Assembly (NCBI GenBank): GCA_038244055.1
Contig: JBBRTW010000001.1
Span: 4,291-68,290, forward strand
Origin: Tepidisphaerales bacterium
GTDB lineage: Bacteria > Planctomycetota > Phycisphaerae > Tepidisphaerales > Tepidisphaeraceae
Reading direction: 5' to 3'
DNA: 64,000 nucleotides
Within the stretch, counting starts at the first letter, position 1. Each line of letters starts with the position of its first letter. The notes beneath the pieces were generated by a model, which saw only the letters and a program-made list of their open reading frames with translations, did no database searches and was not told the origin of the DNA. This document shows positions 2,626-64,000 of the stretch, piece by piece. The translations under genes were made by a program, and so were the position numbers.

Positions 2626-2630
2626 GGCAG

Positions 2631-2863
2631 AAGATAGAAGCGAGGAGCGAGGAGCGAGAAGCGAGAAGAAATTCACAGGGGTCGGAAGGGTCGGAAGCCT
2701 GTTACCAGCGATCTTCCCAGTGGAATCGGCTGATTCAGGCTCGCGACCCTTTCTCGTCAGTGAACTGCCGATCGCTCCTCGCTTCCCGCTTCTCGCTCCT
2801 CGCTTCTCGCTTCTCGCTTCTAACTTCTCGCTTCTAACTTCCAACTTCTAACTTCTCCCTTCT
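2631..2863. repeat. Heptamer-array hairpin element (RAGCGAG units facing CGCTYCT/AACTTCT units)
   Basis: The left arm (2631-2668) has about 5 units of (A/G)AGCGAG. The right arm (2773-2863) has 13 consecutive 7-nt units (CGCTCCT, CGCTTCC, CGCTTCT..., AACTTCT...). The arms are complementary. Confidence 0.9.
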
Positions 2864-5403: not shown

Positions 5404-6810
5404 TCATTCGATCGGCCCGCGCGGCGCTTCCTCGCGCATTTCGCGCGTGTGGTCCGGCAGCAGCATGGCCGCGAACATGGCGGGGATGAATAGGAATCCT
5501 CCCACGAGCAAGGGGATGCGCAACTGGCCGCTCAGGCTGTTGGCGAAGATGCCGAAGAGAATAACGCCGACAGCAGAAGCGATTCGCCCGATGTTGTAGC
5601 AGAAGCCCGCGCCGGTGGTGCGAAGAAGGGTGGGGAAAAGCGGCGGGAGGTACATGGTGAACAGGCCGAAGATTCCCGAAAAAAAACCGACCAGGGGGAT
5701 GTAGAAGTAAAGCAAGGGCATCCAGCTTCGCTCGATGCAAAAGGCGACGGTGATCGCTGCGACAAACCCCAGACACATGACGGCGATGGCCCGGCGGAAG
5801 CCGAAAATCTTCGCCAGCCAGGCCGCGAAGAAATTGCCCGGAATGCTCACGAGAACCGGGAGCATCAGCGCCGCCGCCTGCATCTGCCGCTTGTCGGGAT
5901 CGGACCAGTCTCTAATATCCGGGTGTGAGTTCATCAACTGCGGCACCCAGAACATGATCGACCACCAGGAGGTCAGGGCGCAGGCGCAGACCACGATCGT
6001 GAGGAGCGTGATCCGGCGGGTCGGCCCGCGGAAGAGGTCGGCGATGGAAGGTTGCCGCTCGGAACCCGCGCGAGCGGCGGCATTGGCGGTGTGCCATTCC
6101 TCGGGCTCGGGAACGTGCCGGCGAATCCAGAAAACAATGAAAGCCGGCAAAATCCCCACGAGGAAGACGAAGCGCGGGTTGATCCCTTTCATCAGCGATG
6201 CGGCGACGAAGGCGATGAGCACGCCGAGATTGACGGCCGTCTGGAGAACGGCGGCGATCCATGGCCGCCAGTTCCTGGGCCAGGTTTCGGAAAGAAGCGA
6301 TGACCCGACGGCCCATTCCCCGCCAATACCCAGGGCCGCCAGGAACCGGAAGATGAGCAGGTGCCACCACTGAGTCGCGAAGGCGGAGAGCCCGGTGAAA
6401 AGGGCGTAGGTCAGGACGGTGAGCGACAGCGCGCGCGCCCGTCCCATGCGATCACCCAGACGCCCGAAAAATCCGCCGCCAAGCGCCCAGCCGATGAGGA
6501 ACGCGGCCTGGATCCAGGAGGATTTCTGCTTGACGATGGCATCGGAGGAATTGACAGGCGAGGCGGGATCGGCGGTCAGCAGGATGGCGACGAAGGAGGC
6601 GGCCACCATCGTGTAGAGGTGCATGTCCAGGCCGTCGAAGAGCCAGCCGAGCCATGCGGCGATACCGGATTTCCATTGGGCGGGGGTGAGGTCGCGGAGG
6701 GTGGAGGCTTCGCGGGGAGGAGCGGTTGTGGTAGCGGGAGGGGAGTAGGGGAGAACCGCGGCGTCAACCTCACCGCTGGCGACTGGGGTCGTCGTAGTTG
6801 GGTGGTCCAT
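5404..6810 (-). CDS. MFS transporter
   Basis: 468-aa ORF that is highly hydrophobic with about 12 predicted helices. The GRLGDRMGRARAL loop resembles MFS motif A. Confidence 0.8.
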   Translation of the reverse strand: MDHPTTTTPVASGEVDAAVLPYSPPATTTAPPREASTLRDLTPAQWKSGIAAWLGWLFDGLDMHLYTMVAASFVAILLTADPASPVNSSDAIVKQKSSWIQAAFLIGWALGGGFFGRLGDRMGRARALSLTVLTYALFTGLSAFATQWWHLLIFRFLAALGIGGEWAVGSSLLSETWPRNWRPWIAAVLQTAVNLGVLIAFVAASLMKGINPRFVFLVGILPAFIVFWIRRHVPEPEEWHTANAAARAGSERQPSIADLFRGPTRRITLLTIVVCACALTSWWSIMFWVPQLMNSHPDIRDWSDPDKRQMQAAALMLPVLVSIPGNFFAAWLAKIFGFRRAIAVMCLGFVAAITVAFCIERSWMPLLYFYIPLVGFFSGIFGLFTMYLPPLFPTLLRTTGAGFCYNIGRIASAVGVILFGIFANSLSGQLRIPLLVGGFLFIPAMFAAMLLPDHTREMREEAPRGPIE

Positions 6811-7773: not shown

Positions 7774-8706
7774 TTACGATGCCAGAATCTTATCCAGACT
7801 CCCCGAAAGCACCTTCATCCGCGCCAGATCGCCGCCGCCCATTTCGATGGTTGCCCAGTGATCCGGGCCGGAGAAACCGACATCATCCAGCGCCTTCATG
7901 ATGGCCGGCCATTTATTCGAGCCTTCGAGGAGGTCCGTCTTGAAGCCGGCCCATTTGCCCTCCTTGTCGCTCTTTTTCATGTCGTATTCCTTGACGTGAA
8001 TGCGGACGATCCGCTTGCCGAGGATTCTGATCCACTGCTCGGGGAAGCCGAAGTGCATGACGTTGCCGATATCGAAGTACCAGCCGACGGCCGGGGATTC
8101 GAACTCATCGACATAGCGCGCCGCCTCGACGGGGCTGAGGTGGAAATTGTTCCAGACGTTTTCGATGGCGATCTTGATGCCGAGCTCGGTCGCCAGGGGA
8201 ATAGCCTTGCGGATTTCCTCCTGCGATCGTTTGTAGCATTCGTCGTAGGTGACCTTTTCATTCACGACACCCGGCACCAGCAGCACTGAACCGCCGCCGA
8301 GGGCCTTGGACTGGCGGATGGATTCGAGCAGGGCGTCCACTCCAGCTTTGCGAATGGAGGCATCCGGATCAGACAGGTGCAGCCGCCAGTGCTGGGAATC
8401 GCAGGTGCCTTCGAAGAGCAGGCCTGATTCCTTGAGGGCGGCCTGAATCTGCTCCACCGGGAGCTTGGTATCGGGGAGATTGAGCTGCAGACCGTCGAAT
8501 CCCGCCTCCTTCAGCACCTTCATCTGATCCACCAGTGAAGTGCCCTTGGGCAGGCCGAAGTAGGCTTTCTTGAGGGTGCGTTTTGGATTGGCGGTAGGGG
8601 CATCGGCGGCGAGAACGCCGGCGGGGATGAGCGAGTTCAAAGCAATTCCTCCGGCGAGTGCGCCCGACATTTTGAGGATGCCGCGGCGGTTGATGGTGTG
8701 GGGCAT
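7774..8706 (-). CDS. Sugar phosphate isomerase/epimerase (xylose isomerase-like TIM barrel), Tat-exported
   Basis: A twin-arginine leader MPHTINRRGILKMSGALAGG follows the Met at 8706 (ORF-track start 8754). LGIKIAIENVWNNF and VRIHVKEYD resemble AP-endonuclease-2/TIM-barrel motifs. Confidence 0.72.
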   Translation of the reverse strand: MPHTINRRGILKMSGALAGGIALNSLIPAGVLAADAPTANPKRTLKKAYFGLPKGTSLVDQMKVLKEAGFDGLQLNLPDTKLPVEQIQAALKESGLLFEGTCDSQHWRLHLSDPDASIRKAGVDALLESIRQSKALGGGSVLLVPGVVNEKVTYDECYKRSQEEIRKAIPLATELGIKIAIENVWNNFHLSPVEAARYVDEFESPAVGWYFDIGNVMHFGFPEQWIRILGKRIVRIHVKEYDMKKSDKEGKWAGFKTDLLEGSNKWPAIMKALDDVGFSGPDHWATIEMGGGDLARMKVLSGSLDKILAS

Positions 8707-10412: not shown

Positions 10413-10487
10413 GGGTGCGTTCCTCGGTAGATTCGTTCGATTGTCTTTTCGACACTATAATCGGGCGTGTCCGGCAGGGGAAGAACA

Positions 10488-10664
10488 GGGTATCGGGTAT
10501 AGGGTGTAGGGTATAGGAAAGTGGGGGCGGATTTGAATGGACATTCTCGCCCATAGGTCGCAAACGCGCGCCGTTCCACGAACTGAGAATCCAGAAGTCG
10601 TAACCGCGCATGCATGACCGCGCCTGCCCTATACCCTATACCCTACACCCGATACCCTACCCCC
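10488..10664. repeat. Heptamer-array inverted repeat (GGGTATM units / CCCTAYA units)
   Basis: The left arm (10488-10517) reads GGGTATC GGGTATA GGGTGTA GGGTATA. The right arm (10627-10664) reads CCCTATA CCCTATA CCCTACA CCCGATA CCCTACC. The right arm ends directly at the ATG at 10665. Confidence 0.9.
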
Positions 10665-20168: not shown

Positions 20169-20244
20169 GGGTAGAGGGTAGACGAAATACCGCGTGTTTC
20201 TTGGCGCTTCGTTCTATCCTCAATCCTCTATCCTCTACCCTCTC
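20169..20244. repeat. Heptamer-array inverted repeat (GGGTAGA x2 / TCTAYCC x4)
   Basis: GGGTAGA GGGTAGA at 20169-20182 faces TCTATCC TCAATCC TCTATCC TCTACCC at 20213-20240. Confidence 0.8.
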
Positions 20245-21201: not shown

Positions 21202-21280
21202 GGAGTTCCTCCCAGAACTGTGAAAGTAGTAAATACGACTATATCATGCCGAGAATAATCGCGGAAAACGAGTGTTTTGT

Positions 21281-21392
21281 GTAGCACGGGCATCCTGCCC
21301 GTGTTGAGAATTAAGAATTTGGCGAGTTTCTAAAGTCCGAATCTCGCAGACATGGGCAGAGCCTGTCTTGAGCTTGCGAAAGAATGCCCATG
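21281..21392. repeat. REP-like palindromes (GTAGCACGGGCA..TGCCCGTG family)
   Basis: gtagcacgggcatcctgcccgtgttgag lies at 21281-21308. A split copy catgggca...tgcccatgctac lies at 21350-21392. Confidence 0.85.
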
Positions 21393-23641: not shown

Positions 23642-23780
23642 CGAGTTTCGAGTGAGATGCGAGTGAGTTGCGAGATTCGAGTTATGAGTTGCGAGTCGAG
23701 AAACCGAAATCCTCCACAACTCGCAACCCGCAACTCGCAACTATTTCCGCAACTCCCAACTCGCAACCCGCAACTATTTC
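23642..23780. repeat. Heptamer-array hairpin (GAGTTGC-type units / CAACTCG-type units)
   Basis: The left arm is 23642-23700. The right arm (23717-23780) reads CAACTCG CAACCCG CAACTCG CAACTAT ttccg CAACTCC CAACTCG CAACCCG CAACTAT. The right end overlaps the TAG stop of the bactofilin gene. Confidence 0.88.
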
Positions 23781-24184: not shown

Positions 24185-24392
24185 GGTGTGCCTCCTGCGG
24201 AGTACGGGGATTTGAGCAAACCCGGCACTCCATACCGGGCGAGAAGTTGGGCGGATTATATCGATCGAAGGCAGGGCCACAATCGATTGGAACTCAATGT
24301 GTCAGAAATCAGTAGCCAGGGGCGTTGATGCTCACAGAGACCCCAACAGACTCGCCGGGCAATCGCATGTGGCATGAAAAGGGCAACTATTG

Positions 24393-24474
24393 CGAATTTC
24401 GGATTGTGGATTGCGGATTGAAAGGCGGTTTTCAATCCGCAATCCGCAATCCACAATCCGAAATCCGAAATCGG
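24393..24474. repeat. Heptamer-array hairpin (CGGATTG units / CAATCCG units)
   Basis: CGAATTT CGGATTG TGGATTG CGGATTG (24393-24420) faces CAATCCG CAATCCG CAATCCA CAATCCG AAATCCG (24433-24467). A related copy lies at 42326-42412. Confidence 0.9.
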
Positions 24475-24591: not shown

Positions 24592-24664
<73 letters not shown>

Positions 24665-24801: not shown

Positions 24802-24891
24802 AAAACATAAAACATAAAACATAAAGACATAATCATCCTCGAGCCCCATCCGCCCCCCTTGCCTCCTTTTGTTTTATGTCTTTATGTTTTT
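24802..24891. repeat. Heptamer-array hairpin (AAAACAT units / complementary ATGTTTT-type units)
   Basis: AAAACAT x3 plus AAAGACATAA (24802-24832) faces ttttgttttatgtctttatgttttt (24867-24891). Confidence 0.85.
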
Positions 24892-27756: not shown

Positions 27757-27793
27757 GGGGTTCCTTATAGCGGAAAAACTAAAAACCTAAACC

Positions 27794-27951
27794 GTAGCAT
27801 GGGCATCCTGCCCATGTGGAGTGCGCGGAGCATAAAAATGCAGAGCCCAAAACACCAACGCCGCTCCCACGGGCAAGATGCCCCGTGTTACTTACACGGG
27901 CAAGATGCCCGTGCTACTGTGTTACTCACACGGGCAAGATGCCCGTGCTAC
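27794..27951. repeat. Cluster of 4 REP-like palindromes (GTAGCAYGGGCA..TGCCCRTG)
   Basis: Copies lie at 27794-27821, 27868-27887, 27895-27917 and 27929-27951, in both orientations. Confidence 0.88.
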
Positions 27952-29939: not shown

Positions 29940-30018
29940 TTTTTTTGTCTCCTGTCGGGGTCGGGTGTCGCAACCGTCTCCCTTCATATCACGCCGGCGC
30001 GATTCCGTGGTATAATTT

Positions 30019-30124
30019 GTAGCATGGGCATCTTGCCCATGAAACTTGTAGCACGGGCATCTTGCCCGTGTTGAGGGTGTCATGTTGATACTGCTCGCTT
30101 CCACGGGCAGGATGCCCGTGCTAC
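30019..30124. repeat. Cluster of 3 REP-like palindromes
   Basis: Copies lie at 30019-30041, 30048-30075 and 30102-30124. Confidence 0.88.
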
Positions 30125-32960: not shown

Positions 32961-33076
32961 AATTAACACTCCTCACGGGATTATCGGCAAGAAATATTAG
33001 CACGTTGCGGCGGGAGAGTACAGATTTACCTTCAACGTGCTGAATTCGTGCCTTTAGTGCCCTTCGTGGTTCAAAG

Positions 33077-33856
33077 TCACGGCACTTTCGGCGCGGGCTC
33101 ACCATGCTCGGAGCTGTGGGCGAACTGGCGCTCGACGTAGTCGACGTGGCCGTCGCAGAACAGGACGTTTCCCCTGGCATCCGGATTGGGGATGGGGAGC
33201 GTGGGGGATGGGGCATCGGCGACTTTTTTCTTGGCCATGTCGTGGCGGAGGGAGAGGAGGTTGACGCCGTTTCCCGGGCCGTTCCAGATGACGCCGTTGC
33301 CATCATCGATGGTGGCCATGTCTTCTTCGTACATGAGGATTTTGTCGGATGAGCCTTTGACCTGACTGAGCTTTTTGACGATCACGAAGGTGGCCGGGTT
33401 GGCGTTGGTGCCGCCGCTGGTCATAAACCAGTTCATGACGTAGCTGAAGTAGTAGGGGCCCATGGCGGCGGAGTTTGTTCTCGGGCGGATGGTCCAATCA
33501 TCGGAGGGGCAGCGCATGACTTCGAGATTCGAAGGCGAGAGGTTGACGTACTTGGCCCAGGCGGATTCGCCGATCTGGCCGACCCGGCTGAGCTGCCACC
33601 AGATGAAATCTTCCTCCCAGATGCCGCCGGAGTTTCGCGAGTCGAAGGGGAGATAGCCCTTGTTGTCGTTGGTGTAGGCGATCATGGCCATGCCGAGCTG
33701 GCGGAGATTGGAGGAGCACTTGACGCGCTGGGCATTCTCGCGGGCTTTGTTCAGGGAGGGCAGGAGAATGGAGATCAGCAGCGCGATGATGCCGATGACG
33801 ACGAGAAGCTCGACGAGGGTGAAAGCGCGACGGGCGGATTTTTGAATAGCGGCCAT
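33077..33856 (-). CDS. DUF1559 protein with prepilin-type N-terminal cleavage/methylation domain (H-X9-DG)
   Basis: Starting at [40 protein letters not shown]. The C-terminal [12 protein letters not shown] is also present. Confidence 0.85.
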
Positions 33857-34152
33857 GAATCCTCTGAAATGACAAGCGAATGATACTCCAGTTTTTAAGC
33901 GGCACAAAGCGGTTGCCGGCGGGAGCGTTTGGAAGCGGACCAGGCAGGGGGTGATCGTCGTCATCCGGGTCGTGGCTGGAAGCTCCGAACCCGGCGTGGC
34001 GGCGCTCAATTTACGCTAGCGATCAGCTTGTGGGGTAATCCCTTGGGTTTTCGGGCGTGCGAAGTCGGTTAAGGTGCTTGCGGCAGGTGCGTGTTCGTGT
34101 TCTTTCTCACGATCGGGGGATGGCATTGGCCGATGAACGCCTTGGAAACGAT

Positions 34153-36170: not shown

Positions 36171-36205
36171 GAAGGATGAATGATGAAGGATGAAGGATGA
36201 AGGAC
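36171..36205. repeat. Tandem heptamer array (GAAGGAT x5 with variants)
   Basis: GAAGGAT GAATGAT GAAGGAT GAAGGAT GAAGGAC lies immediately upstream of the CYTH gene start. Confidence 0.85.
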
Positions 36206-36285: not shown

Positions 36286-39200
36286 TCATTTCACGACGAA
36301 ATTCACCAGCCGCTTGGGGACGTAGAGTTCCTTCACCACTGTCTTGCCGGCCAGATGGGGCTGGACGCCGGCGTCCTGGCGGGCGGCGGCGAGAATTTCG
36401 GCTTCGGGGGCGTCGGCGGGGACGGTGACTTTGCCGCGGAGTTTGCCGTTCACCTGGACGGGAATCTCGATGGCCGTTTCGGCGAGTTTGGCCGGGTCGA
36501 AGGTGGGCCAGGGGCGGCGGGTGAGGGTCTTGGAATGCCCCAGGCGGGCCCAGATTTCCTCGGCGATGTGCGGGGCGAAGGGGGCCAGCATCAAGGTGAA
36601 ATTCTCGGCCAAGTCGCGCGGGATCGACTCCAGTTTGGCCATCTCGTTATTCAGCTTGATCAGCTCGGCGATGGCGGTGTTGAAGCGCAGGTCTTCGATA
36701 TCCTCGGCCACTTTCTTGATGGTCCGGTGCATCTGGCGATCGATGGCATCGGGGATCGGGCCGGTACTGATAACGACGACCTTCTTCTTCTGGTCCTTTG
36801 ATTCTTCGCCGCCATCTTCATAGTCGCCGACGAGGTTTCGCCAGACGGAGTTGAGGAAGCGGGCCATGCCGACGATATCACGGGTGTTCCAGGGTTTTTG
36901 GGCTTCGAGAGGGCCCATGTACATTTCGTAGAGGCGGAAGGTGTCGGCCCCGTAGTCGCCCACGATGGTGTCGGGATTGACGACATTGCCGCGGGATTTG
37001 GACATCTTGAAGGACCGGGCATCGACCTTGATGGCGGCGTTGGCCTTGAGGACGTAGGAGTCGCCCTGCTTCTGGATCAGGATTTCTTCGATGCGCCGGG
37101 CGAAGAGTTTGACGCCGGTCTGCCTGTGGTAGCCGAACATGCGCACGCCGGCCTCGGTCGCTTCTTCCTCGACATCGCGGACCTCGGTGGCCGAGACCGG
37201 CTTGCCGCCATCGTCTTCGAAAAAGTGATATTCCATCTCACCCAGAATCAGCCCCTGGTTGACCAGGCGCTTGAATGGCTCAGGGGTTGCCACATGACCG
37301 AGGTCAAACAGCACCTTATGCCAGAAGCGCGAGTAGAGCAGATGCAGGACGGCATGCTCGACGCCGCCGACGTACAGATCGACGGGCATCCAGTAGGCTT
37401 CTTTGGCCGGGTCGACGAAGCGGTCGGAGTTGCGCGGGTCGATGTAGCGCAGGTAATACCAGCAGGAGCCGGCCCACTGGGGCATGGTGTTGGTCTCGCG
37501 CGTGAAGGTATCCCCGGCTTTGTCGGTGTAGGCGATCCAATCCTTGACCTTCGACAGGGGGGGCTCGGGGGTGCCGGTGGGTTTGAAATCGACCATTTCC
37601 GGCAGGGCGAGGGGGAGCTCGGATTCATCCAGCGGATAAGGCTCGCCATCTTCATCCAGCACGATCGGGAAAGGCTCGCCCCAATAGCGCTGGCGGGAGA
37701 AGAGCCAGTCGCGGAGTTTGTATTTGATGGATTTGTGGCCGACGCCTTCGTCTTCGAGGTGATCGGTGATTTTCTCTTTGGCGTCGGCCGTCGGCAGGCC
37801 TTCGATCAGGGGGGAGTTGATGGCGATGCCTTCGCCGACGAAACAGGTCTCGGGGTCGGCGGTCCCGGTCGCCGGTTTGACGACTCGGGTGATGGGCAGG
37901 CCGAACTTTTTCGCGAACGCCCAGTCGCGATCATCGTGCGCGGGGACGGCCATGATCGCCCCGGTTCCGTAGCCCATCAGTACGTAATCCGCGATCCAGA
38001 CCGGAATCTGCTCCTTGTTCACCGGATTGATCGCATACGTTCCCGTGAAGACGCCGGTTTTGTCTTTGGAATCGGCCATTCGATCGCGCTCGGAGCGCCC
38101 GCCGACGGCGGCGCGGTAGGCTCCGACGGCCGACTTTTGCGCATCGGTGGTGATCCGCTCGACCAGCGGATGCTCGGGGGCCAGGACCATGTAAGTAGCG
38201 CCGTAGAGCGTATCCGGGCGGGTGGTGAAGACGGTGATGACATCGCCCATGTCGGTTTCGGCGGCGAGTTCGTCTTCGAGGGAGGTTGCGGGTTGCGAGT
38301 TGGGAGTTGGGAGTTGCGAGTTACGCGAGTTGTCCGTTGTCCGTTGTCCGTTGTCCGTTGTTGGTGATTGCTCGCTCGGTCCAACTGACAACGGACCACT
38401 GACGACGGACAACGGACCTTCTCGCTTCTGTTCGACTACATCAAAATCCACCTCCGCGCCGATGCTTTTGCCGATCCAGTTTCGCTGCATTTGCTTCAGC
38501 GATTCGGGCCACTCCACGCTGTCCAAGTCATCGGCGAGGCGGTCCGCATATGCAGTGATGCGCAGCAGCCATTGCTGCATCGGCCGACGCTCAACCGGAT
38601 GACCGTCCCGCTCCGACTTGCCATCAATCACTTCTTCATTGGCCAGCACAGTCCCCAGCCCCGGGCACCAGTTCACTGGAATTTCATCTTTGTACGCGAG
38701 CCGCGAGTTAAGGATTACATCGGCCTGCTCTTCTTCCGACAGCTCGCGCCAGAGCCGCTCGGAGCGGATTTCGCCGGCGACCTGCTCGAGGCCTTCGGTG
38801 GTTGGGTTCACATGGATCGTGAAATCGGGCGCGACGACGTAATTTTCGTTAGCCAGTTCGTTCATCAGATGGGCGATGGGCATCGCCTTTTGCTGGATCG
38901 GGTCGAAATAGGAGTTGAACAGTTGCAGGAAGATCCACTGGGTCCAGCGGTAGTAGCCGGGGTCGGTGGTATCGACTTCGCGATCCCAGTCGTAGCTCAG
39001 GCCGAGCATTTGGATCTGGCGGCGGAAATTCTCGATGTTTTTGCGGGTGGTGGCGGCGGGGTGAACGTTGTTTTTGATGGCATATTGCTCGGCCGGCAGG
39101 CCGAAGGCGTCCCAGCCCATGGGATGGAGGACATTGAACCCTTTCATGCGGTAGAAGCGCGAGACGATATCGGTGGCGGTGTATCCTTCGGGATGGCCAA

Positions 39201-39354
39201 CATGCAGCCCGGACCCGCTGGGATAGGGGAACATATCCAGGATGTATTTCTTAGGCTGATCGGGAGCCTCCTCGGGGTCGAAGGCCCGGAAGGATTTGTT
39301 CTCCAGCCAATACTGCTGCCACTTCTTTTCGATCGCGGTAAAGTTGTAAGGCAT
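36286..39354 (-). CDS. leuS: Leucine--tRNA ligase
   Basis: HVGHPEGY (HIGH) and KMSKSRGN (KMSKS) motifs, the [20 protein letters not shown] editing-domain entry and the YWLEN N-terminus. At 1022 aa it is longer than usual because of an internal low-complexity insertion. Confidence 0.97.
38284..38418. repeat. Heptamer-array hairpin element embedded in-frame in leuS
   Basis: GGTTGCG GGTTGCG AGTTGGG AGTTGGG AGTTGCG ... GTTGTCC x4 (38284-38363) faces GACAACG GACCACT GACGACG GACAACG (38387-38414). It is about 135 nt and is translated as [45 protein letters not shown]. Confidence 0.85.
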
Positions 39355-39397
39355 AACGGGTTGGATGATAGCGGAAAGTGGTTGGGCGGGAAGGCGT

Positions 39398-39494
39398 CAA
39401 TGGTCCATGGTCAATTGTCCATGGTCCATTGTTTATTGGAGGAGGAGTTGTCCGAGCGGGCATACGCGATGGACAATGGACAATTGACAAAGGA
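39398..39494. repeat. Heptamer-array hairpin (CMATGGT units / GGACAAT units)
   Basis: CAATGGT CCATGGT CAATTGT CCATGGT CCATTGT (39398-39432) faces GGACAAT GGACAAT TGACAAA (39471-39491). It lies upstream of the leuS start. Confidence 0.85.
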
Positions 39495-39595
39495 CGTCCC
39501 ATAACGCGATCTTGCGCAAATTTTGGAGGAAAGTTCTAAATTGAGCCGACAGCGTTCCGATAACCGATATAGGACATCAGAGTAAGCCAGTTCGA

Positions 39596-42325: not shown

Positions 42326-42412
42326 GGGATTGCGGATTTGAGATTTGAGATTGCAGATTTTGCGCGGGAAATTCAATCCGCAATCCGCAATCGCCAATCC
42401 GCAATGCGAATC
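42326..42412. repeat. Heptamer-array hairpin (SRGATTK units / CAATCCG units)
   Basis: GGGATTG CGGATTT GAGATTT GAGATTG CAGATTT (42326-42360) faces CAATCCG CAATCCG CAATCGC CAATCCG CAATGCG (42374-42408). It starts 2 nt after the TAG stop. Confidence 0.9.
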
Positions 42413-46304: not shown

Positions 46305-47831
46305 GTGTCATCCGCCGAGCTCGAAACCATACTCAAAGACCTTCCGCGCCACGGCCAGCGCATCAAGGATCGGCCCTATCGCCAGGTCTGGCGTTTCGAG
46401 GCGGGCGGGAAGGCTTACTACCTCAAGTTCTATCCCCGCCCCGGCTCGCGCCTCAAACGCGTGTTTCGCGGCAACCCCGCCATGCGCGAATTCCTGCGGA
46501 TGCAGTGGCTCCAGAAGGCGAAGATTCCTTCGCCACGGGCGGTGGCGATGCTGGCCGGGTACACCATCGAAGGCATCAAGGGCGATGCTGTGCTTTCACT
46601 CGCCATTGAGCCCTCGATCCAACTCGACAAATACCTCAACGGCTTCGAACTGCTCGGCCAGCGCGCCGCCGATCATCTTCAGCTCTCCGCCAAAGTCCGC
46701 GAACTCGTCTTCTCCCTCGGCCGCGCCGGCTTTGGCCATAACGACCTCCACCTGGGCAACTTTCTCAAGTCCGGCGATGCCGTCTATCTCCTCGACGCCT
46801 ATGCCGTCACCCCCGGCGGGCTGAAGATGAAACAGCTTATGAAGCTCGGCCACAGCGCCGCCCGATATGCCACGCGCGGCGATGTCCGCTGCGCCTGGGC
46901 GATGCTGGCCGAGGGCGCGCCGATGCCGCGCAGCAATGCCACCTCCTCGCGCATCTGGCAAAAGTTCATCGATCAGATCGCCGGCGGCAATCGCTATTTC
47001 GGAAAGATGGATTCGCGAGGCTGGAGCGGATCGTTTTTTCAGCACTGGAAATATCCTTACCGTTGGTCGGCCGCCAGCCAGCTAAATGTTTCCGATGCCG
47101 ATTGGGCGCGGGAATGGCCGATGCTGTTGGAAAAGATGGAATCTGGCGCGTTCGAGGTTCTGAAAACGGGCCGCAGCGGCGATGTTTTGGCCGCGCAGGT
47201 CACGCTGGGCGGGCGGGCGATCGATGTGATCGTCAAGCGCCCGCGTCGGAAGAGGTGGTATCGCTATATCAATGAAATCGGCCGGGGCTCGCGCGCCTGG
47301 CGGGCCTGGAAGAAAAGCTGGAGCCTGGTCACGCGGAACATCCCCACGGCCTGGCCTCTGGCGATCGTGGAGAAGAAGACGCTCGGCTACGTCATGGATC
47401 AGGTCATTATCTGCGAGCGCGTGCCCGGGCAGTCGCTGGCGGTGACCGATCTCGATGCCCTGCCGGGGAGCGAGCGCGATCAGATGTTCCGCCGCTGCGG
47501 GAGGATGCTCCGCCGAATCGAGACGACGGGGATGAGCCATTTCGATTCCAAGTCGAGCAACTGGATCATCTCGCCCGATGAAAAGCGCGGGCCGACGCCG
47601 ATACTGGTCGATGTCGATGGCATCCGGTTCTATCGCTGGGACGCGTTCAGCATCCGCCGGCTATTGAGATCCATGCTCGAACACCCTCAATACACCCCGG
47701 CCGACAGTCTAGCGCTCTGCCAGGGCTACGCGCCATTCACGCTTCTGGAACCTGAAGAAGAATTGAACCACGAAGGACACGAAGAGCACGAAGGGGAGAA
47801 TGAGGTTGAAGAGGATGTCCGCGAGAAGTGA
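46305..47831 (+). CDS. Lipopolysaccharide kinase (Kdo/WaaP/InaA) family protein, two kinase-like lobes
   Basis: GHNDLHLGNFL and SHFDSKSSNWII catalytic-loop-like motifs. The C-terminus is an acidic HEGHEEHEGE tail. Confidence 0.68.
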   Translation: MSSAELETILKDLPRHGQRIKDRPYRQVWRFEAGGKAYYLKFYPRPGSRLKRVFRGNPAMREFLRMQWLQKAKIPSPRAVAMLAGYTIEGIKGDAVLSLAIEPSIQLDKYLNGFELLGQRAADHLQLSAKVRELVFSLGRAGFGHNDLHLGNFLKSGDAVYLLDAYAVTPGGLKMKQLMKLGHSAARYATRGDVRCAWAMLAEGAPMPRSNATSSRIWQKFIDQIAGGNRYFGKMDSRGWSGSFFQHWKYPYRWSAASQLNVSDADWAREWPMLLEKMESGAFEVLKTGRSGDVLAAQVTLGGRAIDVIVKRPRRKRWYRYINEIGRGSRAWRAWKKSWSLVTRNIPTAWPLAIVEKKTLGYVMDQVIICERVPGQSLAVTDLDALPGSERDQMFRRCGRMLRRIETTGMSHFDSKSSNWIISPDEKRGPTPILVDVDGIRFYRWDAFSIRRLLRSMLEHPQYTPADSLALCQGYAPFTLLEPEEELNHEGHEEHEGENEVEEDVREK

Positions 47832-48966
47832 TTCCTCTCCTATACCCTATACCCTACACCCTATACCCTCCCCTTTGACCAGCCCCCAAAAGATCCTCGT
47901 CATCAAACCCAGCGCCATCGGCGATGTCGTGCATACGCTGCCGATCCTGAATCTGCTGCGCAAGCGCTGGCCGGCAGCGCATATCGCGTGGCTCATTACG
48001 CCCGCCTGCGCGGGGATGATCCAGGGGCACCCGCAGCTCGATGAAGTGATCCTCTTCGACCGCAAAAAACTCGGCTCCATGTGGAAAAACCCGCGCGTGT
48101 TCTTCGAGCTGCGCCGCTTCACGCGCTCGCTTGCCGCGAAACAATTCGACCTGGTCCTCGATCTTCAAGGGCTTTTCCGCAGTGGCTGGCTCGCCCGGAA
48201 AACTCATGCGCCGATGCGGGTTGGCTTCCGCAACGCCCGTGAGTTGGCATGGTTCTTCTATACGCATCGCGTGCCGATCGGCACGATGGAGCAGCATGCG
48301 ATCGAGCGGTATTTGACGCTGGCGCGCTCGATCGGCTGCGAGGGGGAAGTGGAATTTGTCTTCGCGCACGATGATGAGGACCGACGCGCGGTGAGGGCCA
48401 TGATCGATGATGCGATCGGCATGCGCGGCGTCCAATCGAGCCCGGCCGCTTCCATGCCCCTCGGTGTTTCATCTTCATCCCTCCACATTGCCGCCCCGCG
48501 CTACGCGATTCTCGCTCCCACCACGAATTGGGACACCAAGCGCTGGCCGGCCGGGAAATTCGCCGGGCTGGTCGCGCCTTTGCGGGATCGTTTCGGGCTC
48601 GAGTCCATTCTGATCGGCGGCCCGGACGTGGCCGCGATGTCGTCCCAATTCCCTGGCGCAATCAACATTGGCGGGAAAACCACGCTTCGCCAGCTTTGCG
48701 CGCTCATCGAAAGCGCTGCGCTGGTCATCTCGAACGACTCGGGCCCCATGCACATCGCGGCCGCGATGCGCCGGCCGCTGGTGACGATGTTTGGCCCGAC
48801 CAACCCCGTGCGCACCGGCCCGTATGGGCGGATGCAAAGCGTCATCCGCCTGCCGATCGCCTGCTCGCCGTGCTATCTGAAAACCTGCTGGCATCAGAGC
48901 TGTTTGAAGCATCTGGAAATTGGCCCGGTTCTTGAACTGGCAGAGCGGCAGATGAACGGCAGTTGA
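47815..48966 (+). CDS. Glycosyltransferase family 9 (LPS heptosyltransferase)
   Basis: ILVIKPSAIGDVVHTLPILNLLRKRWP, LDLQGLFRSG and NDSGPMHIAAA motifs. The start is uncertain (ATG 47800/47815, or in-frame TTG 47875 after the repeat). Confidence 0.85.
   Translation: MSARSDSSPIPYTLHPIPSPLTSPQKILVIKPSAIGDVVHTLPILNLLRKRWPAAHIAWLITPACAGMIQGHPQLDEVILFDRKKLGSMWKNPRVFFELRRFTRSLAAKQFDLVLDLQGLFRSGWLARKTHAPMRVGFRNARELAWFFYTHRVPIGTMEQHAIERYLTLARSIGCEGEVEFVFAHDDEDRRAVRAMIDDAIGMRGVQSSPAASMPLGVSSSSLHIAAPRYAILAPTTNWDTKRWPAGKFAGLVAPLRDRFGLESILIGGPDVAAMSSQFPGAINIGGKTTLRQLCALIESAALVISNDSGPMHIAAAMRRPLVTMFGPTNPVRTGPYGRMQSVIRLPIACSPCYLKTCWHQSCLKHLEIGPVLELAERQMNGS
47838..47872. repeat. Tandem heptamer array (CCCTAYA units), same unit family as 10627-10664
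   Basis: TCCTATA CCCTATA CCCTACA CCCTATA CCCTCCC. It lies inside the only ATG-initiated reading frame of the GT9 gene. Confidence 0.88.
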
Positions 48967-59455: not shown

Positions 59456-60097
59456 CTATCCCAAGGGTTTGAATAGCAGTTCCGTACCGATGGTCTTGAT
59501 CAGCTCATTGAGGTAGGAGTCGATGTATTGCAGGCATTGCGCCTGATCGGTCGAGCCGACTTCCGAAAAGACCACCCGTAAAGTCGTGTGTTTATCGCGG
59601 ACTGCGGCGAACGCCGCGGCGGTTGCCTGCACGCCATCTGCGGTCACTAGGAGGCGCAATACTGCTTCGAGGCAGACGATGCGACAGCGCAGCGCATCCC
59701 GCACGGCCTGGAGGGTGGGGGCCGCCGCCAACGCCCGCATCGCGCGTTTGTCGCCCGAGGCTATGTAATAGGCGGGGTTCTCGGCCGCCAGTGCCAGGAG
59801 CAGGGCCTCGCCTTCATCAATCGCTTCGACTTCGTTAAGGAGTTGGAAGAGCGCATCGTCGGCGGGACGGTCAATCAGGGGCGCAATGCCGTTGCACTCG
59901 GCGACCGCCTTTCGTCGCACGGCATCGCTATAGTTCTTCTTAAAAGCCTTCCCCCGGTCGAGCTGGTGCGGCAGCGCCTCCAGCCGGCGAATGTTCCCGT
60001 CCTCCACCCCCAGCAGCGCGGCGACGCGTCCGATCAACCCGGCCGAGGCCAGGAGGATGAAGATATCGGAGTCAATGATGAGCAGCCGGTCTGCCAT
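59456..60097 (-). CDS. PIN-like domain protein (putative nuclease) with C-terminal extension
   Basis: LLIIDSDIF (Asp9/Asp11), EAIDEGEALLLALA and YIASGDKRA give a PIN-type acidic pattern. AAGGA lies 7 nt upstream of the ATG, and only 12 nt separate it from the upstream gene. Confidence 0.5.
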   Translation of the reverse strand: MADRLLIIDSDIFILLASAGLIGRVAALLGVEDGNIRRLEALPHQLDRGKAFKKNYSDAVRRKAVAECNGIAPLIDRPADDALFQLLNEVEAIDEGEALLLALAAENPAYYIASGDKRAMRALAAAPTLQAVRDALRCRIVCLEAVLRLLVTADGVQATAAAFAAVRDKHTTLRVVFSEVGSTDQAQCLQYIDSYLNELIKTIGTELLFKPLG

Positions 60098-60109
60098 CCC
60101 CGTCCTTTC

Positions 60110-61183
60110 TCAATCACAGGAATCGCCAATGGATAGACACGAGAGGAACCGGGCGGACGACTCGGGAAGGTCACCCATGTCGACGTGCCGCTTCAAATGC
60201 TCGGCGATGATGGCATGGGCGCCGGCATCTTCTCCCAGCGTCTGGAGCGCCAACTGACCTGGCCCCCAGCGATTGGCGGAGCGTGCATAGACTAAGGCGA
60301 CAGTGCCAGCAGCCACACCATTCTCAGCGCCCCAGCGCTGGGCGGCTTTGGCAAGCTTGGCGGCGGTCAGCCCCCACTCGGGGCGGAACCCCGGCTTCTC
60401 CTGCCCAGTCAAAACCTTATTGGCAAAGGCGTCCGCCTGCTTCTCCTGGGCGTCATCATCAACGCGGTCAATATCGGCATCCACGAGGGGTGCTTCGCCC
60501 GGATTGACATGTCCCAGGAACAGGTGCCCCATCTCGTGAGCCAGGTGGAAGGCAAGCCACGGCGGACTTTGCTTCACCGAACCCAGGACAATCACCGGGA
60601 CATTGCCACAGTAGAGCGCCAAGCCGGCAAACTTCTTTGCCGCCCGGGGAAGGCGCTCGGGAAGAACGTGGAACACGACAATTCCGCTCCGCCAGGCGAA
60701 GGTCAGAAGCGATGCCAGATCGACGGCTGGTGCATCGGCCAAGATGTGCCCCCGCACCTTTTCCGCCACTACAGACCCGCCGAAGGGCGCAGGAGCCGTC
60801 GTATGCGCGACAACCAGCGCTGCCAGGCGCTGCGCGATGTGGACGGCGGGGCGCAACTCCTCGGCGGGCACGTTTTTATGCCGCTTCAGGCGAAAAGAGC
60901 CGATTGCGGGCACGGGCAGGGCGCGCTTTGGATCACGCAGTTCGGCGATCTTGAAGCCTAATTGTTTGGCGATCGCGGCCTCGGCCAGCGCGCGATTGGC
61001 GGGCACGGCGGCGAGCTTGTCTTCCCACCAGTCGGGTAGCACGACCCCTTTCAGAAACGCGGCGTCAAAGCCGCGTTCCTTTAGGCGGTCGTACAGATCC
61101 TGCATGGGCTTGGCGTTCTGGATGATGGCTCTCCTTGGCGTGGTAGGCATGAATTGTAGCATGCCGGCCGCGCCCTCGCACAT
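60110..61183 (-). CDS. ImmA/IrrE-family (COG2856) HEXXH metallopeptidase
   Basis: LAFHLAHEMGHLFLGH plus downstream EKQADAFANKVL is typical of the family. The start is ambiguous (61183, 61162 or 61105). Confidence 0.72.
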   Translation of the reverse strand: MCEGAAGMLQFMPTTPRRAIIQNAKPMQDLYDRLKERGFDAAFLKGVVLPDWWEDKLAAVPANRALAEAAIAKQLGFKIAELRDPKRALPVPAIGSFRLKRHKNVPAEELRPAVHIAQRLAALVVAHTTAPAPFGGSVVAEKVRGHILADAPAVDLASLLTFAWRSGIVVFHVLPERLPRAAKKFAGLALYCGNVPVIVLGSVKQSPPWLAFHLAHEMGHLFLGHVNPGEAPLVDADIDRVDDDAQEKQADAFANKVLTGQEKPGFRPEWGLTAAKLAKAAQRWGAENGVAAGTVALVYARSANRWGPGQLALQTLGEDAGAHAIIAEHLKRHVDMGDLPESSARFLSCLSIGDSCD

Positions 61184-61266
61184 ACTGACAGTCGAGGCAT
61201 CTGATCGGAATTAACCTGAAGTTCCCTGGCTGATCTCCGGGTCGCCGCATGCGGACGCTGGTCCGC

Positions 61267-62361
61267 CTAGCGCCGAGTGGCCGACGCGAGGCTCTGGACG
61301 TAATGCCAAGGACATTCCCGGATTGCCTTCCTCGTCCGGGCTCGGTGCTTGACCCACCACGCCACGAGCGACACTGCGATCCCGATTCCTGCCAAGACCG
61401 GAGCGAAGACGGTCCCGGCAACTGTGGCAGCGCCCGCAGCCGCCATGGCGGGCGTCGAAATTGCCAGTGCCGACACCCCCGTCTCAATCCGGGCCTCTCG
61501 CAATGCCTTGCGGTGGTCGCGGATCGCCGATTTGATTTCGCCCCGTTTCTGCACAATGAAGTCCTCGATCGCAGCCGGGTCCTTCAGTTCGGCGCAGCCT
61601 ACGCCCAACGCCTCGACCGCCTCACGAAAGCGGCGGCGCTCATCGGCCCGTCTTTCTCGGAAATCGAGTATCTGGCGCATGGTCAGATTGGCGACTGAAT
61701 CCGCTGTCGGGAATTCGATCCCCAGCCGCAGCAGGAACGACCGTCTTACCGCCTCGCCGTCACACTCTTCCGGGAGCGCGTCGGCGTGCAAGAGGTACTC
61801 GCCCCCAGGCGCGACACGGGGGACGTCGGTCACCATGGGACAGCCCATTTCCCGCGACATCACGGTGGCGAGGCACGCCATGTAGCCCGCGCTGAGGTCG
61901 ACCGCCATTCTCATCCAGTCACCGCGTTTCTCTGCACGACCGCTCCTCAATAAAAGATCTCGCAGTTCCTCGCTCATTTTGCTGCTGTACACGTAATCCG
62001 CACCCCTCCTATTGGCGAACGTGCCCCACATGGTCGCCGACTGTTCGGATTCCCGATTCGCCCAAGGCAGTACCCGCGCCTTGAAAAGCTCCGCCGCAGC
62101 GACGGCGTAATCCCGGGGATCGCCGGTGAGGAGGCATCCGGCCCCGGCGGCCTGATTCACCTCCTTCGAGTCCCGCACCTCGAATCTGAGGGCGTTCGGG
62201 ACGATCCGCCGCACCCGCTCCCAATACAGCAAGCTAGATTTAAGCCAACCAAGGTCTGGTTTGAGATTCGGATAATAAAGTGCGGTGCCGGCTTCCGTTC
62301 TGAACCGCACCGGCGCACTCTCCTCCGCTTCGTCCAATGGTCTTCTCGTCGTCATGGCCAT
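61267..62361 (-). CDS. DUF6236-like protein with C-terminal transmembrane segment
   Basis: ALYYPNLKPDLGWLKSSLLYWERVRRIVP near the N-terminus resembles what I recall of DUF6236. The C-terminal hydrophobic stretch is AGTVFAPVLAGIGIAVSLVAWWV. A strong AAGGAG SD is present, and the gene starts 17 nt after the methyltransferase stop. Confidence 0.5.
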   Translation of the reverse strand: MAMTTRRPLDEAEESAPVRFRTEAGTALYYPNLKPDLGWLKSSLLYWERVRRIVPNALRFEVRDSKEVNQAAGAGCLLTGDPRDYAVAAAELFKARVLPWANRESEQSATMWGTFANRRGADYVYSSKMSEELRDLLLRSGRAEKRGDWMRMAVDLSAGYMACLATVMSREMGCPMVTDVPRVAPGGEYLLHADALPEECDGEAVRRSFLLRLGIEFPTADSVANLTMRQILDFRERRADERRRFREAVEALGVGCAELKDPAAIEDFIVQKRGEIKSAIRDHRKALREARIETGVSALAISTPAMAAAGAATVAGTVFAPVLAGIGIAVSLVAWWVKHRARTRKAIRECPWHYVQSLASATRR

Positions 62362-62378
62362 TGCTCCTTTCTTTTGGT

Positions 62379-64000
62379 CTATTTCCCCACCGCGTACACC
62401 TTGAGTACCTCGTCCCCGTAATGATTGATCACCTTCACCGCGATCTTCCCCGACGCGGGCCGGGGGAACGGGCGGCTCCTGGTCTGGTACAGGTCGGCCC
62501 AGGCCGATTCATCCACCTCAGCGCGCAGGGCTTTCTTGAGCTTCTCATAGGGCTCATCCGCCCCGGTGAAATAGGCGTGGCGGACGAAGAAGCTCTCATC
62601 GTTGTAGTTGGTGTCGATAAACCAGCAGGCGATGTCATCGGTGGAGTTGGAGCGAATCTCCCCCGTGGTGGGGTCATAGACGTCCAGGCCGCGAATCTCG
62701 GCCACCAGCATTCCCTCGGGCACATCCGGGTCGTAGCGGACCGCTCCGGCGTCGGCGGCGGGCTTTTTCCCTTTGGCGGCGGCAGCGCCGGCCGGCTTAT
62801 CGCCGGAGAGGATCGCCACATCCGGCTCGCCGAAAACCATGAAGAGATTCCCCGCCCCGGTCTTCTTGAGCAGCTCATCCCCCATCGACAAATCCGGGTT
62901 CATCTTGACCGACAAAACCGTGAGCTTGCCGTACCGTTTGGCCTCCTCCGCTACGTGTGGGTCAAAGGCGAAGCCGCAGACCAGCAGGATGTCGAACCCG
63001 ACCCCCTTCACCGTCTCCATGGCCGCATCCTTGACCAGCCGCGGCTCGACCGTGCCGAACTCCGGGCCGATGCAGATCGCGGCCCGGCGGGGCTTGCCGT
63101 CGGCGTCCGCGTACCGCCCCTCGCCGCAGATCCACTCGCCCGGGTAAATCTCGACCGAGTCGAACTTCAGCCGCTGGCTCTTGACCGTGTTCTGCACCCC
63201 CGCCTTCTTGAGGTTCTCCAGCATGGTGTTGGTGAAGTCGCTCCCGGCGAGCATCTTCATCGTGAAGCCCAGGTCGGTCGGCTTGTTGGCCGCCCGCTCC
63301 TTGGCCTCGACACTGATCGTCCGGTGCGGGGAGAGGCTCTCGACAGTGAACGGCCCGGCGACGCGCAGGCGGCCGGCGTCGGCGTAGGGCTTGTCGAAGA
63401 GGGTCTCGGTATCGGCGTGTTTGGCGATCGCGGCGTCGATCTCGCGGCGGGTCATGCCCTCTTTAATGTCCGGGTTGTTGGCGATGGATTTGAGCGTGAC
63501 ATGGGGGACGCGCTGGTAGACGAAGCCCTTGCGCACGTCGCCGTCGAATGCCGCGGAAGGATTCACCACGGAGGACACGGAGGGCACGGAGGCGGACAAC
63601 TCGGCTTCCTTCTTGCGGCCCTCGGGAGAGTCGGAGAGGAGGTAGTACGGGAAGCGGGCGCACATCAGGCGAGTGCGGGCGAGGGCCAGGGCAACGCGGC
63701 TTGTGTCGGTAGTGATCCAGCGACGGCCCCATTGCTCGGCGACATAGGCAGTCGTGCCGCTACCACAAGTGGGATCGAGGACGAGATCGCCGGGGTCGGT
63801 GGTCATCATGATGCAGCGTTCCACCACCTTCACTGATGTTTCGACGACGTACCGCTTGTCACTCGCAAATCCGGCAACGACGGTATCAGCCCAAAGATCG
63901 CTGATCGGCATGGCCGGGAAGTCATTGATAAACCTTACGTAATACAGTCCCCCACTAGTCGCCTCCAGGCGCCTCGCGGCGAGCAATTTCGTCATGCCGG
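62379..64000 (-). CDS. Site-specific DNA methyltransferase, beta-class N6A/N4C (Mod-like), 5'-truncated by the window edge
   Basis: AdoMet motif I is LVLDPTCGSGTTAYVAEQWGRRWITTD. A long C-terminal domain ends ...KIAVKVINHYGDEVLKVY, as in large Mod-type enzymes. The catalytic (D/N)PP(Y/F) motif is expected beyond 64000. Confidence 0.82.
   Translation of the reverse strand, partial: GMTKLLAARRLEATSGGLYYVRFINDFPAMPISDLWADTVVAGFASDKRYVVETSVKVVERCIMMTTDPGDLVLDPTCGSGTTAYVAEQWGRRWITTDTSRVALALARTRLMCARFPYYLLSDSPEGRKKEAELSASVPSVSSVVNPSAAFDGDVRKGFVYQRVPHVTLKSIANNPDIKEGMTRREIDAAIAKHADTETLFDKPYADAGRLRVAGPFTVESLSPHRTISVEAKERAANKPTDLGFTMKMLAGSDFTNTMLENLKKAGVQNTVKSQRLKFDSVEIYPGEWICGEGRYADADGKPRRAAICIGPEFGTVEPRLVKDAAMETVKGVGFDILLVCGFAFDPHVAEEAKRYGKLTVLSVKMNPDLSMGDELLKKTGAGNLFMVFGEPDVAILSGDKPAGAAAAKGKKPAADAGAVRYDPDVPEGMLVAEIRGLDVYDPTTGEIRSNSTDDIACWFIDTNYNDESFFVRHAYFTGADEPYEKLKKALRAEVDESAWADLYQTRSRPFPRPASGKIAVKVINHYGDEVLKVYAVGK

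Follow-up and report, generated by a model that had tools for sequence, protein, structure and literature searches.

How does a hairpin built of heptanucleotide repeats come to be read as part of an essential enzyme? The question is raised by a repeat block that lies inside leuS, the gene of leucyl-tRNA synthetase (LeuRS), in a Tepidisphaerales bacterium. The DNA analyzed here, referred to as the window, is a stretch of 64,000 nucleotides (nt) of contig JBBRTW010000001.1 (assembly GCA_038244055.1), and all coordinates are those of the window unless stated otherwise. An initial annotation of the window described a block of ~135 nt in leuS that has the architecture of the intergenic heptamer hairpins around it, compared it with the Rickettsia palindromic elements (RPEs), and suggested that such elements are, or were, mobile or generative. 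The observation is confirmed by the present analysis and the overall interpretation is supported: with a probability that we put roughly at 0.72, the block is a composite copy, ~147 nt long, of the genome's own dispersed heptamer-repeat hairpin elements that has been placed in leuS.

The host gene and the parts of the block, as delimited by Tandem Repeats Finder (TRF), inverted-repeat searches and folding, are the following:

36286..39354, minus strand: leuS, bacterial-type leucyl-tRNA synthetase, the host gene, an open reading frame (ORF) of 1022 residues
38239..38436, minus strand: hypervariable connector, residues 307-372, between the strand ending in ..GAEVDFDV and the strand that enters the CP1 editing domain
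38239..38283, minus strand: acidic connector tail, residues 358-372 (15 residues), assigned by its likeness to the linker ends of relatives
38284..38328, minus strand: outer array without a partner arm (TRF 38285-38332, period 7, 6.6 copies of GTTGCGA), encoding 15 residues
38329..38361, minus strand: perfect hairpin arm, GTTGTCC x4.7 (TRF period 7, 100% matches), encoding 11 residues
38362..38381, minus strand: non-repetitive hairpin loop, TGTTGGTGATTGCTCGCTCGGTC region, placed by sequence and folds, encoding part of GPSEQSP
38382..38417, minus strand: degenerate hairpin arm (TRF period 7, 5.1 copies of CAACGGA, 79% matches), encoding 12 residues
38418..38430, minus strand: probable remnant, two units long, of a third heptamer family (mRNA strand AGAAGCG AGAAG), encoding QKRE; likely 5′ edge of the insert

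The arrays, arms and folds bear out the block as it had been annotated at 38284-38418, and the ORF translation agrees with the one given before, i.e. 45 residues (G313-T357) in frame and without a stop. On the plus strand, the outer array consists of the units GGTTGCG, GGTTGCG, AGTTGGG, AGTTGGG, AGTTGCG and AGTTACGCG, which appear on the mRNA strand as CAACTCG, CAACTCC and CAACCCG. The GTTGTCC arm reads GGACAAC in the mRNA and is the 3′ arm of the hairpin; the 5′ arm is the degenerate one, with the plus-strand units CAACTGA, CAACGGA, CCACTGA, CGACGGA and CAACGGA. The two arms are 90% complementary over 30 nt (38332-38361 against 38388-38417; 88-90% when 38382-38417 is set against 38329-38361) and fold into a stem of ~30-32 bp. 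As DNA, the hairpin folds at -34.2 kcal/mol (z = -7.75), and 0 of 200 shuffled sequences are as stable; the mRNA strand of the block folds at -57.1 kcal/mol (z = -3.8). The sequence has no uridine run 3′ of the stem, which therefore is not an intrinsic terminator, and an Rfam scan of the window returned one tRNA only, with no match on the leuS element. Since three of the six frames through the block are open, its stop-free state is unremarkable.

The insert is probably somewhat longer than the annotated block. The 12-mer AGAAGCGAGAAG at 38418-38429 belongs to another heptamer family, and its presence sets the edge at ~38430, so that the insert would comprise 147 nt and residues 309-357. Judged by its sequence, the block is a composite of three unit families, each of which has relatives outside genes.

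The product of the host gene matches TIGR00396 (leuS_bact) over its full length with 1052.6 bits (cut-off 548.4) and Thermus thermophilus LeuRS (1h3n) with E = 2e-211. It also carries the class I HIGH and KMSKS motifs (HVGH at residues 51-54, KMSKS at residues 783-787) and the CP1 editing motif TTRPDT, as a bacterial leucyl-tRNA synthetase should. In a collection of 5.8 billion proteins, the closest LeuRS proteins are annotated as Tepidisphaeraceae or Phycisphaerae and are just 75% identical. The gene order CYTH-leuS-PilZ-SpoIIE is common to the window and the nearest relatives, and the host is a Tepidisphaeraceae-like planctomycete.

In the alignment with T. thermophilus LeuRS, query residues 306 and 373 correspond to Thermus residues 236 and 243; therefore 66 residues (307-372) replace 6 of Thermus, between a beta-strand and the entry to CP1, where the initial annotation had located the insertion. 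The connector of Escherichia coli LeuRS has ~8 residues. Linker length was then determined in 120 relatives as the distance between the NWIGxS and TTRPDT anchors. The values lie between 18 and 96 residues (median 36.5), and the query, with 79, has the second longest linker. The connector is minimal in 22 of the 120 relatives. When arranged in neighbour-joining order, linkers are conserved only among very close sequences; they cannot be aligned between clades, and no sequence is common to different clades. Minimal linkers are scattered through many clades, and in the two nearest relatives, at 75% identity, the linkers measure 27 and 34 residues and are unrelated. The short connector is hence ancestral and the site hypervariable. 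A conserved, non-repetitive segment of the same length was not found at this position among the relatives. Their linkers end in acidic residues, e.g. ..EDEDLT and ..EGDGDV, resembling residues 358-372 of the query, and this acidic tail is probably ancestral linker that lies outside the insert.

The predicted structure agrees with an exposed position of the insert. In an AlphaFold2 run with 95 aligned relatives (mean predicted local distance difference test score, pLDDT, of 78.9), residues 311-368 have a pLDDT of 28-43 and nearly no secondary structure, and the strands on either side (residues 296-307 and 372-377) are confident. In the model, the insert is a disordered loop and occupies the tip of the beta-hairpin running to the TTRPDT editing motif; this is the kind of surface loop that the initial annotation had proposed to look for. 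We also considered, and dropped, the idea that all long linkers are visibly heptamer-derived: among the 120 relatives, lag-7 periodicity is significant only in the query, P0112 and P0036. A different sort of loop peptide, of the SPSPGTPGEGRGEG type, was noted in the LeuRS loops of P0087, P0090, P0117, P0108 and P0114 (site 1) and P0004 (site 3); these peptides resemble translations of another G+C-rich palindromic repeat that is common in planctomycete genomes.

In order to trace the origin of the insert, we turn to the other repeats of the window. Strong tandem arrays are restricted to a period of 7, with 8 arrays versus 0 in dinucleotide shuffles and 0 at periods 4-6 and 8-12. Lowering the threshold brings the period-7 arrays to 18, of which only the leuS pair is located deep within a gene, all others being intergenic or at the edge of a called gene. 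Most of these arrays are paired as long-stem hairpins, each with its own unit, and at least ten different unit families are present in the 64 kb. Those discussed below are:

2629..2863, plus strand: intergenic AGAAGCG / TCGCTTC hairpin together with a CTTCTAA array without partner arm
10487-10664: AGGGTAT / CCCTATA hairpin
20170-20243: hairpin with heptamer arms
23649..23780, plus strand: intergenic GAGTTGC / CAACTCG-CAACCCG hairpin, of the same unit family as the leuS outer array
24389-24472 and 42328-42412: ATTGCGG / CAATCCG hairpins
36171..36204, no strand assigned: GAAGGAT x4.9 array immediately 3′ of the leuS stop codon (TRF)
39396..39495, no strand assigned: heptamer hairpin GTCCATG / ATGGACA in the divergent leuS-PilZ intergenic region

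Some of these heptamer-arm hairpins are accompanied by an unpartnered array, and the architecture claimed for the leuS block is indeed that of the intergenic elements, because both have a heptamer-arm hairpin and an extra, unpartnered array beside it (2831-2856 in the intergenic element, 38284-38328 in leuS).

The likeness extends to the sequences themselves. An exact 25-mer, CAACTCCCAACTCGCAACCCGCAAC, is common to the leuS outer array and to the intergenic positions 23750-23774, where 0 would be expected by chance, and it keeps the order of three variant units at both loci; two more copies of the 23649-23780 family end in the same ..GCAACTATTTC. The 12-mer at the edge of the insert occurs elsewhere in the window only four times, all within 2629-2863 (0.01 expected). 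In addition, a search with the inserted peptide led to a spurious ORF of 54 residues that runs over an intergenic hairpin in another metagenome contig (L167:3517-3600), and the arm of this hairpin, GTAGTCAGTGGTCCTTTGTCCGTTG, matches the leuS arm GTCGTCAGTGGTCCGTTGTCAGTTG with ~85% identity. Whole hairpins recur as well: 24389-24472 and 42328-42412 are homologous across their entire length (~80% identity) and have unrelated flanks, while 10623-10662 and 47834-47873 are 90% identical. Taken together, the shared 25-mer and 12-mer and the dispersed hairpin copies favour copying between loci over independent slippage.

Insertions of the same kind are found in leuS of other lineages. Six relatives (L081-L086) were fetched deliberately, and 160 further leuS loci were returned by two collection scans regardless of repeats. 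At the LeuRS site of the query, L081 has (AGGGTTC)n and (ACTCAGG)n arrays in which a 99-nt block is tandemly duplicated, L084 has GGGTTCA arrays, and L085 has a hairpin of -55 kcal/mol made of AGAGACG-type units. The second-closest relative, L086, carries decayed GGGTTCN units. In the closest one, L082, in-frame arrays of GAAGGAT and AAATCCG occupy a different loop, corresponding to query residues 846-862, and the GAAGGAT unit (L082 8436-8465) is the one that stands just 3′ of leuS in the window. L083, a Tepidisphaeraceae metagenome-assembled genome (GCA_035634055.1), has one element in frame in both leuS and proS (8300-8430), ~3 kb apart. These two copies share GGGGTTC and ACCCGAA arms and a non-repetitive loop, and the encoded peptides are GPGFGVRGPGEGDGGASPSSPDT..SSPDTRHPKPETR in leuS and SGFGVPGSGEDGDAPSSPDTRHPKPETR in proS. 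A pairing of the L081 GGGTTCA and ACTCAGG arrays through G·U pairs was considered and rejected, because on one strand the two units do not complement each other.

Within the leuS ORFs of all 166 loci there are 22 arrays of period 7, 3 of period 8 and 0-1 at each of the other periods from 4 to 12; periods 6, 9 and 12, which would preserve the frame by themselves, yielded 0 arrays. Heptamers are hence almost the sole class of short tandem repeat within leuS. In-frame 7-mer arrays (8-mer arrays in two cases) occur in 14 of the 160 unselected loci, and the arrays of the 166 loci are confined to five loops:

CP1 entry loop: arrays in L046, L064, L093, L131, L140 and L149
Loop at residues 493-502: array in L164
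YWM/GVDLYVGG loop, query 656/657: arrays in L003, L033, L043, L046, L064, L093, L117 and L140, and octamers in L037 and L050
C-terminal loop: arrays in L071 and L149
Anticodon-domain loop, residues 846-862: arrays only in the deliberately fetched L082 and L083

Heptamer hairpins stand at the query's own site in L085, L131 and L140. The octamers at the YWM/GVDLYVGG loop belong to Verrucomicrobia (L037 4888-4998 and L050 1945-2037; TTCAACGA / TTCAACAA, peptide STIQQFNNST). In L140, L046 and L149 the same unit vocabulary is used at two sites of one leuS, and in L149 again just 3′ of the stop codon. Where hosts of leuS arrays are named, they are Phycisphaeraceae, Verrucomicrobiia or Verrucomicrobiota, Candidatus Binatia and Candidatus Acidoferrum. 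Arrays deep within genes were counted in 12 of 137 leuS versus 5 of 673 other flanking ORFs (Fisher p = 1e-6, uncurated); four of the five non-leuS ORFs look spurious, and one of the twelve leuS arrays lies upstream of the true start codon. Stricter ORF filters gave, as a first estimate, a ~25-fold enrichment per kb in leuS. This enrichment for in-frame heptamer arrays is based on crude gene calls and is preliminary. The LeuRS loops are a recurrent sink for heptamer-hairpin DNA in several phyla.

Repeat hairpins also lie in the spacer between leuS and the PilZ gene. Where the window has its GTCCATG / ATGGACA hairpin, L085 has a TCACAAC / GTTGTGA hairpin (1928-2079) and L082 one of 8-9-mers (5823-5920); in this orthologous spacer the position of the hairpin is kept among several relatives while the unit sequence is replaced. 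As for the earlier suggestion that the elements are mobile or generative, it is upheld by the shared 25-mer, by element copies dispersed among unrelated flanks, by the L083 element in leuS and proS, and by the leuS genes with two occupied sites.

According to the preferred reading, leuS would have received the DNA by copying or recombination, at the tip of the CP1-entry beta-hairpin. The route that we favour would have another element as the source of the copy, by way of ectopic recombination, gene conversion or a transposition-like process of unknown nature. Later slippage may then have produced the perfect GTTGTCC array, presumably in steps of three units (21 nt) only, because single-unit slippage would frameshift the essential leuS. 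The insert could persist owing to its frame-keeping length, its stop-free frame and a loop that tolerates extra residues. The chance of keeping the frame would be ~1 in 3; with three of six frames open, no special design is needed. Transcribed and translated with leuS, the insert would place ~49 hydrophilic, disordered residues on the enzyme surface, with most likely little or no effect on catalysis, so that it may be regarded as near-neutral. The mRNA would gain a stem of ~30 bp in its coding region, which translating ribosomes would unwind. Within an essential gene, a perfect 7-nt array is also a potential site of frameshifts, and single-unit slippage would therefore have to be infrequent or constantly purged.

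Several observations weigh against a copied insert. There is no full-length second copy of the exact composite within the 64-kb window, and the inner hairpin has no second copy there either; a search of the window and 86 loci for (GTTGTCC)3 found none further. The peptide search of the 5.8 billion proteins gave 7 candidates with one weak match, namely the spurious 54-residue ORF mentioned above, and by this measure this exact element is not a widespread in-frame module and is not seen in frame in other proteins. The insert has no definable target-site duplication or terminal signature, the sole candidate direct repeat at its edges being a 5-nt TCGAA that is indistinguishable from chance. Pfam scans of 30 window proteins revealed no transposase, no REP-associated tyrosine transposase (RAYT; REP, repetitive extragenic palindrome) and no reverse transcriptase. 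The nearest LeuRS is 75% identical and there is no empty-site sister strain, so the insertion event is deduced from a more distant comparison. A 7-residue periodicity is detected in just 3 of 71 long linkers, so that an origin from heptamer DNA cannot be claimed for all of them. Finally, the outer-array stretch 38255-38328 is outside the coverage of independent contigs, at a depth of ~4.7, and that the insert is translated we infer from the sequence.

Among the alternatives, growth in place survives best, although we consider it improbable. Here, slippage and intrastrand template switching would expand a seed of the ancestral linker, and nothing would be imported. The GTTGTCC array is 100% perfect and its partner arm 79%, as one would expect after a recent local expansion, and the tandem duplication of 99 nt in the L081 arrays is local as well; yet one-unit slippage frameshifts the essential gene and only three-unit steps are viable. 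Polymerase slippage has been proposed for heptamers, which are over-represented in many bacteria (PMC4679880, PMC4692102), and unit sequence does tend to be specific to lineage and locus. Expansion of a local seed, however, does not lead one to expect that the order of variant units in a 25-mer is shared with another locus, that a 12-mer of a third family stands at the edge of the insert, that the leuS and proS copies of L083 have a non-repetitive loop in common, or that whole hairpins of the window recur with unrelated flanks.

A selected function has a much slimmer chance. The insert could provide a new LeuRS surface, or the mRNA hairpin could tune leuS through ribosome pausing, RNase III cleavage or attenuation. 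The uncurated excess of in-frame arrays in leuS would suit such a role, but it can be explained by the unusually permissive loops of the indispensable LeuRS. The same few loops are struck in several phyla, the motif 'QGSEPQP' is retained across one subclade of relatives, and hairpins are also found in the orthologous leuS-PilZ spacer of relatives. Nevertheless, the inserts are unrelated between lineages and predicted to be disordered, many relatives make do with a minimal loop, and the stem, lacking a uridine run, is not an intrinsic terminator.

The assembly of the block was examined with independent data. The source sequence is present in one public run, a DNA run of a sediment metagenome, at a depth of ~4.7. 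Independent Logan contigs with at least 99% identity cover 38150-38254 and 38334-38520, and one of them, at the depth of the organism, joins the degenerate arm, the loop and ~4 GTTGTCC units to the upstream leuS coding sequence. The support for the assembly at this site, for which the initial annotation had asked, is therefore partial: it comes from assembler contigs of this one run, which cover both of these stretches but not 38255-38328 between them, and the copy number and the exact outer array are to be taken as provisional. A 'skip 231' joint that was seen at 90% likeness was rejected as an empty-site allele, since it is gone at 99% and would moreover delete the conserved GAEVDF strand. 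That all or part of the block is an artefact, a low-coverage assembler having threaded leuS through repeat k-mers shared with other heptamer loci, is the least likely explanation of all, since, despite the low depth, the gap between contigs from 38254 to 38334, pure GTTGTCC 31-mers at a depth of ~1000 in the same run and the fact that the unverified stretch is the carrier of the 25-mer shared with 23750-23774, an independent contig links the degenerate arm, the loop and ~4 units to leuS, leuS continues on both flanks with the frame kept, and equivalent in-frame elements stand at the same site in independent assemblies of other studies (L081, L084, L085, L131, L140 and L149).

With a copied heptamer hairpin as the preferred reading, the element can be compared with known repeat systems. 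RPEs are in-frame insertions of dispersed palindromic repeats within genes (PMC10969869), and the comparison drawn by the initial annotation is apt as an analogy, with no implication of family membership. The likeness consists in dispersed palindromes of ~100-150 bp that are found in frame in unrelated, often essential genes and, when translated, add a segment to the protein surface that is regarded as compatible with its fold (PMC10969869, PMC3733652). In the present case, the hairpin is in frame in leuS, and the L083 element is in frame in leuS and proS, two aminoacyl-tRNA synthetase genes. RPEs have a family consensus and a conserved peptide, whereas the heptamer arms vary by locus and the leuS copy is composite; no consensus of the whole element and no conserved peptide was found, only the 25-mer, the 12-mer and the one arm of L167 being shared. 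The host, too, is a member of the Planctomycetota and not a Rickettsia.

REPs with GTAG or CGTC tags have been described inside genes, sometimes twice per ORF, including those of the verrucomicrobium Opitutus terrae (PMC3733652). Like the heptamer hairpins, REPs and REPINs are short extragenic palindromes that are also intragenic, with large housekeeping enzymes favoured (PMC3733652). Unlike them, the leuS element has a substructure of heptamer arrays, and REPs and REPINs are mobilised by RAYT transposases. Neither GTAG nor CGTC is present at the termini of the leuS block, and no cognate RAYT (an IS200/IS605-like tyrosine transposase) is encoded among the 30 scanned proteins of these 64 kb of the genome. 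The window does contain REP-like palindromes with a GTAG tag, TGTAGCACGGGCATCYTGCCCGTG, at 21280-21308, 27793-27821, 27864-27951 and 30018-30124, some copies in tandem and some inverted. This family is of the classical REP type, separate from the heptamer hairpins and coexisting with them.

Among the intergenic tandem repeats of prokaryotes, heptamers are reported to be the commonest, and of their function or origin there is 'no clear clue' (PMC6344855). Described systems include the short tandemly repeated repetitive (STRR) sequences of cyanobacteria, GGGAATC in Xanthomonas and TAACTGA in Beggiatoaceae (PMC4692102, PMC4679880, PMC6344855). A Beggiatoa genome has 10 TAACTGA sets within ORFs, in the orientation that is free of stops; one set falls in an RNA polymerase beta-prime-like protein, at a surface loop (PMC4679880). 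The window resembles these systems in its head-to-tail 7-nt units of at least three copies, which are mainly intergenic, over-represented beyond chance and beyond other periods, and, as is sometimes the case elsewhere, arranged in inverted pairs; furthermore, the leuS arm contains CAACTGA units. The described systems, however, have one favoured unit per genome (of the TAACTGA, GGGAATC or CCCCAAT type) and mostly simple direct arrays of 2-6 units, while here at least ten families coexist in 64 kb, in long-stem hairpins and in a 147-nt composite deep in an essential gene. [quoted passage not shown] The leuS element thus works like an RPE or an intragenic REP and yet belongs to neither, as it has no whole-element consensus and no tag. 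A search of the available literature turned up no report of heptamer hairpins from Planctomycetes or Verrucomicrobia and none of a LeuRS with repeat insertions.

The heptamer repeats of this genome form hairpin elements, of which there are dispersed copies, and although 7 is not divisible by 3, such elements can become part of essential genes without loss of the frame. The interest lies less in the single insert than in copyable heptamer hairpins that repeatedly add loops to a universal enzyme across phyla. They offer a natural way for a universally conserved protein to acquire new surface loops, and the filled sites, donor loci and composite structures give a handle on how the repeats spread. 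In practical terms, the inserts inflate and scramble alignments of leuS, a common phylogenetic marker, and the sites show at which positions LeuRS can accommodate 15-80 additional residues, a property of use in protein engineering.

A more far-reaching proposal, which we regard as doubtful, is that in Planctomycetota, Verrucomicrobiota, Acidobacteriota and Binatia hairpins with heptamer arms form a distinct and widespread class of DNA that propagates itself or is generated enzymatically, that they are preferentially located in frame in a few loops of LeuRS and other editing synthetases, and that the leuS excess reflects targeting or selection rather than tolerance. If this were true, the loops concerned would be the CP1 entry, YWM/GVDLYVGG and anticodon-domain loops, and the excess might mean, for example, a generator of new protein loops or control of synthetase expression at the mRNA level.

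Some further features of the window and its genes were noted. LeuRS has a second insertion with respect to T. thermophilus, of ~70 residues (148-217; window 38704-38913). Its sequence is conserved in 95 of the 95 aligned relatives and AlphaFold2 models it as helices and strands; this insertion is lineage-wide, structured and not repeat-derived. An A+T-rich hairpin at 24802-24891, with AAAACAT x4.3 facing TTTATGT units, is located upstream of a GH5 cellulase gene. The G+C content of the window is 60.6%, and from this hairpin it follows that the unit composition of the elements is not tied to the 60% G+C of the genome. Close by, the tRNA-Lys(CTT) gene (24592-24664) lies 120 nt downstream of the 24389-24472 hairpin.

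A weak period-7 array (33183-33213, GGATGGG x4.1, 73% matches) is found in the gene at 33077-34009 on the minus strand, which encodes a DUF1559 / N-methyl protein. The array is in frame, comprises 15 residues and directly precedes, on the N-terminal side, the conserved NVLFCDGHV. Here a second gene of the window may hold a heptamer insert, in a decayed state. Arrays of 9-mers, CACGAAGGA and CACGGAGGA, occur at the 3′ ends of genes (47769-47794, 63567-63592 and 33045-33074), where 33045-33074 and 47763-47792 are 87% complementary over 30 nt, and may represent another small dispersed repeat family. A mobile or defence island is conceivable at the end of the window (~59456-63998), where genes for a DNA methylase, an M78/IrrE-like peptidase and a DUF6236 protein are clustered.

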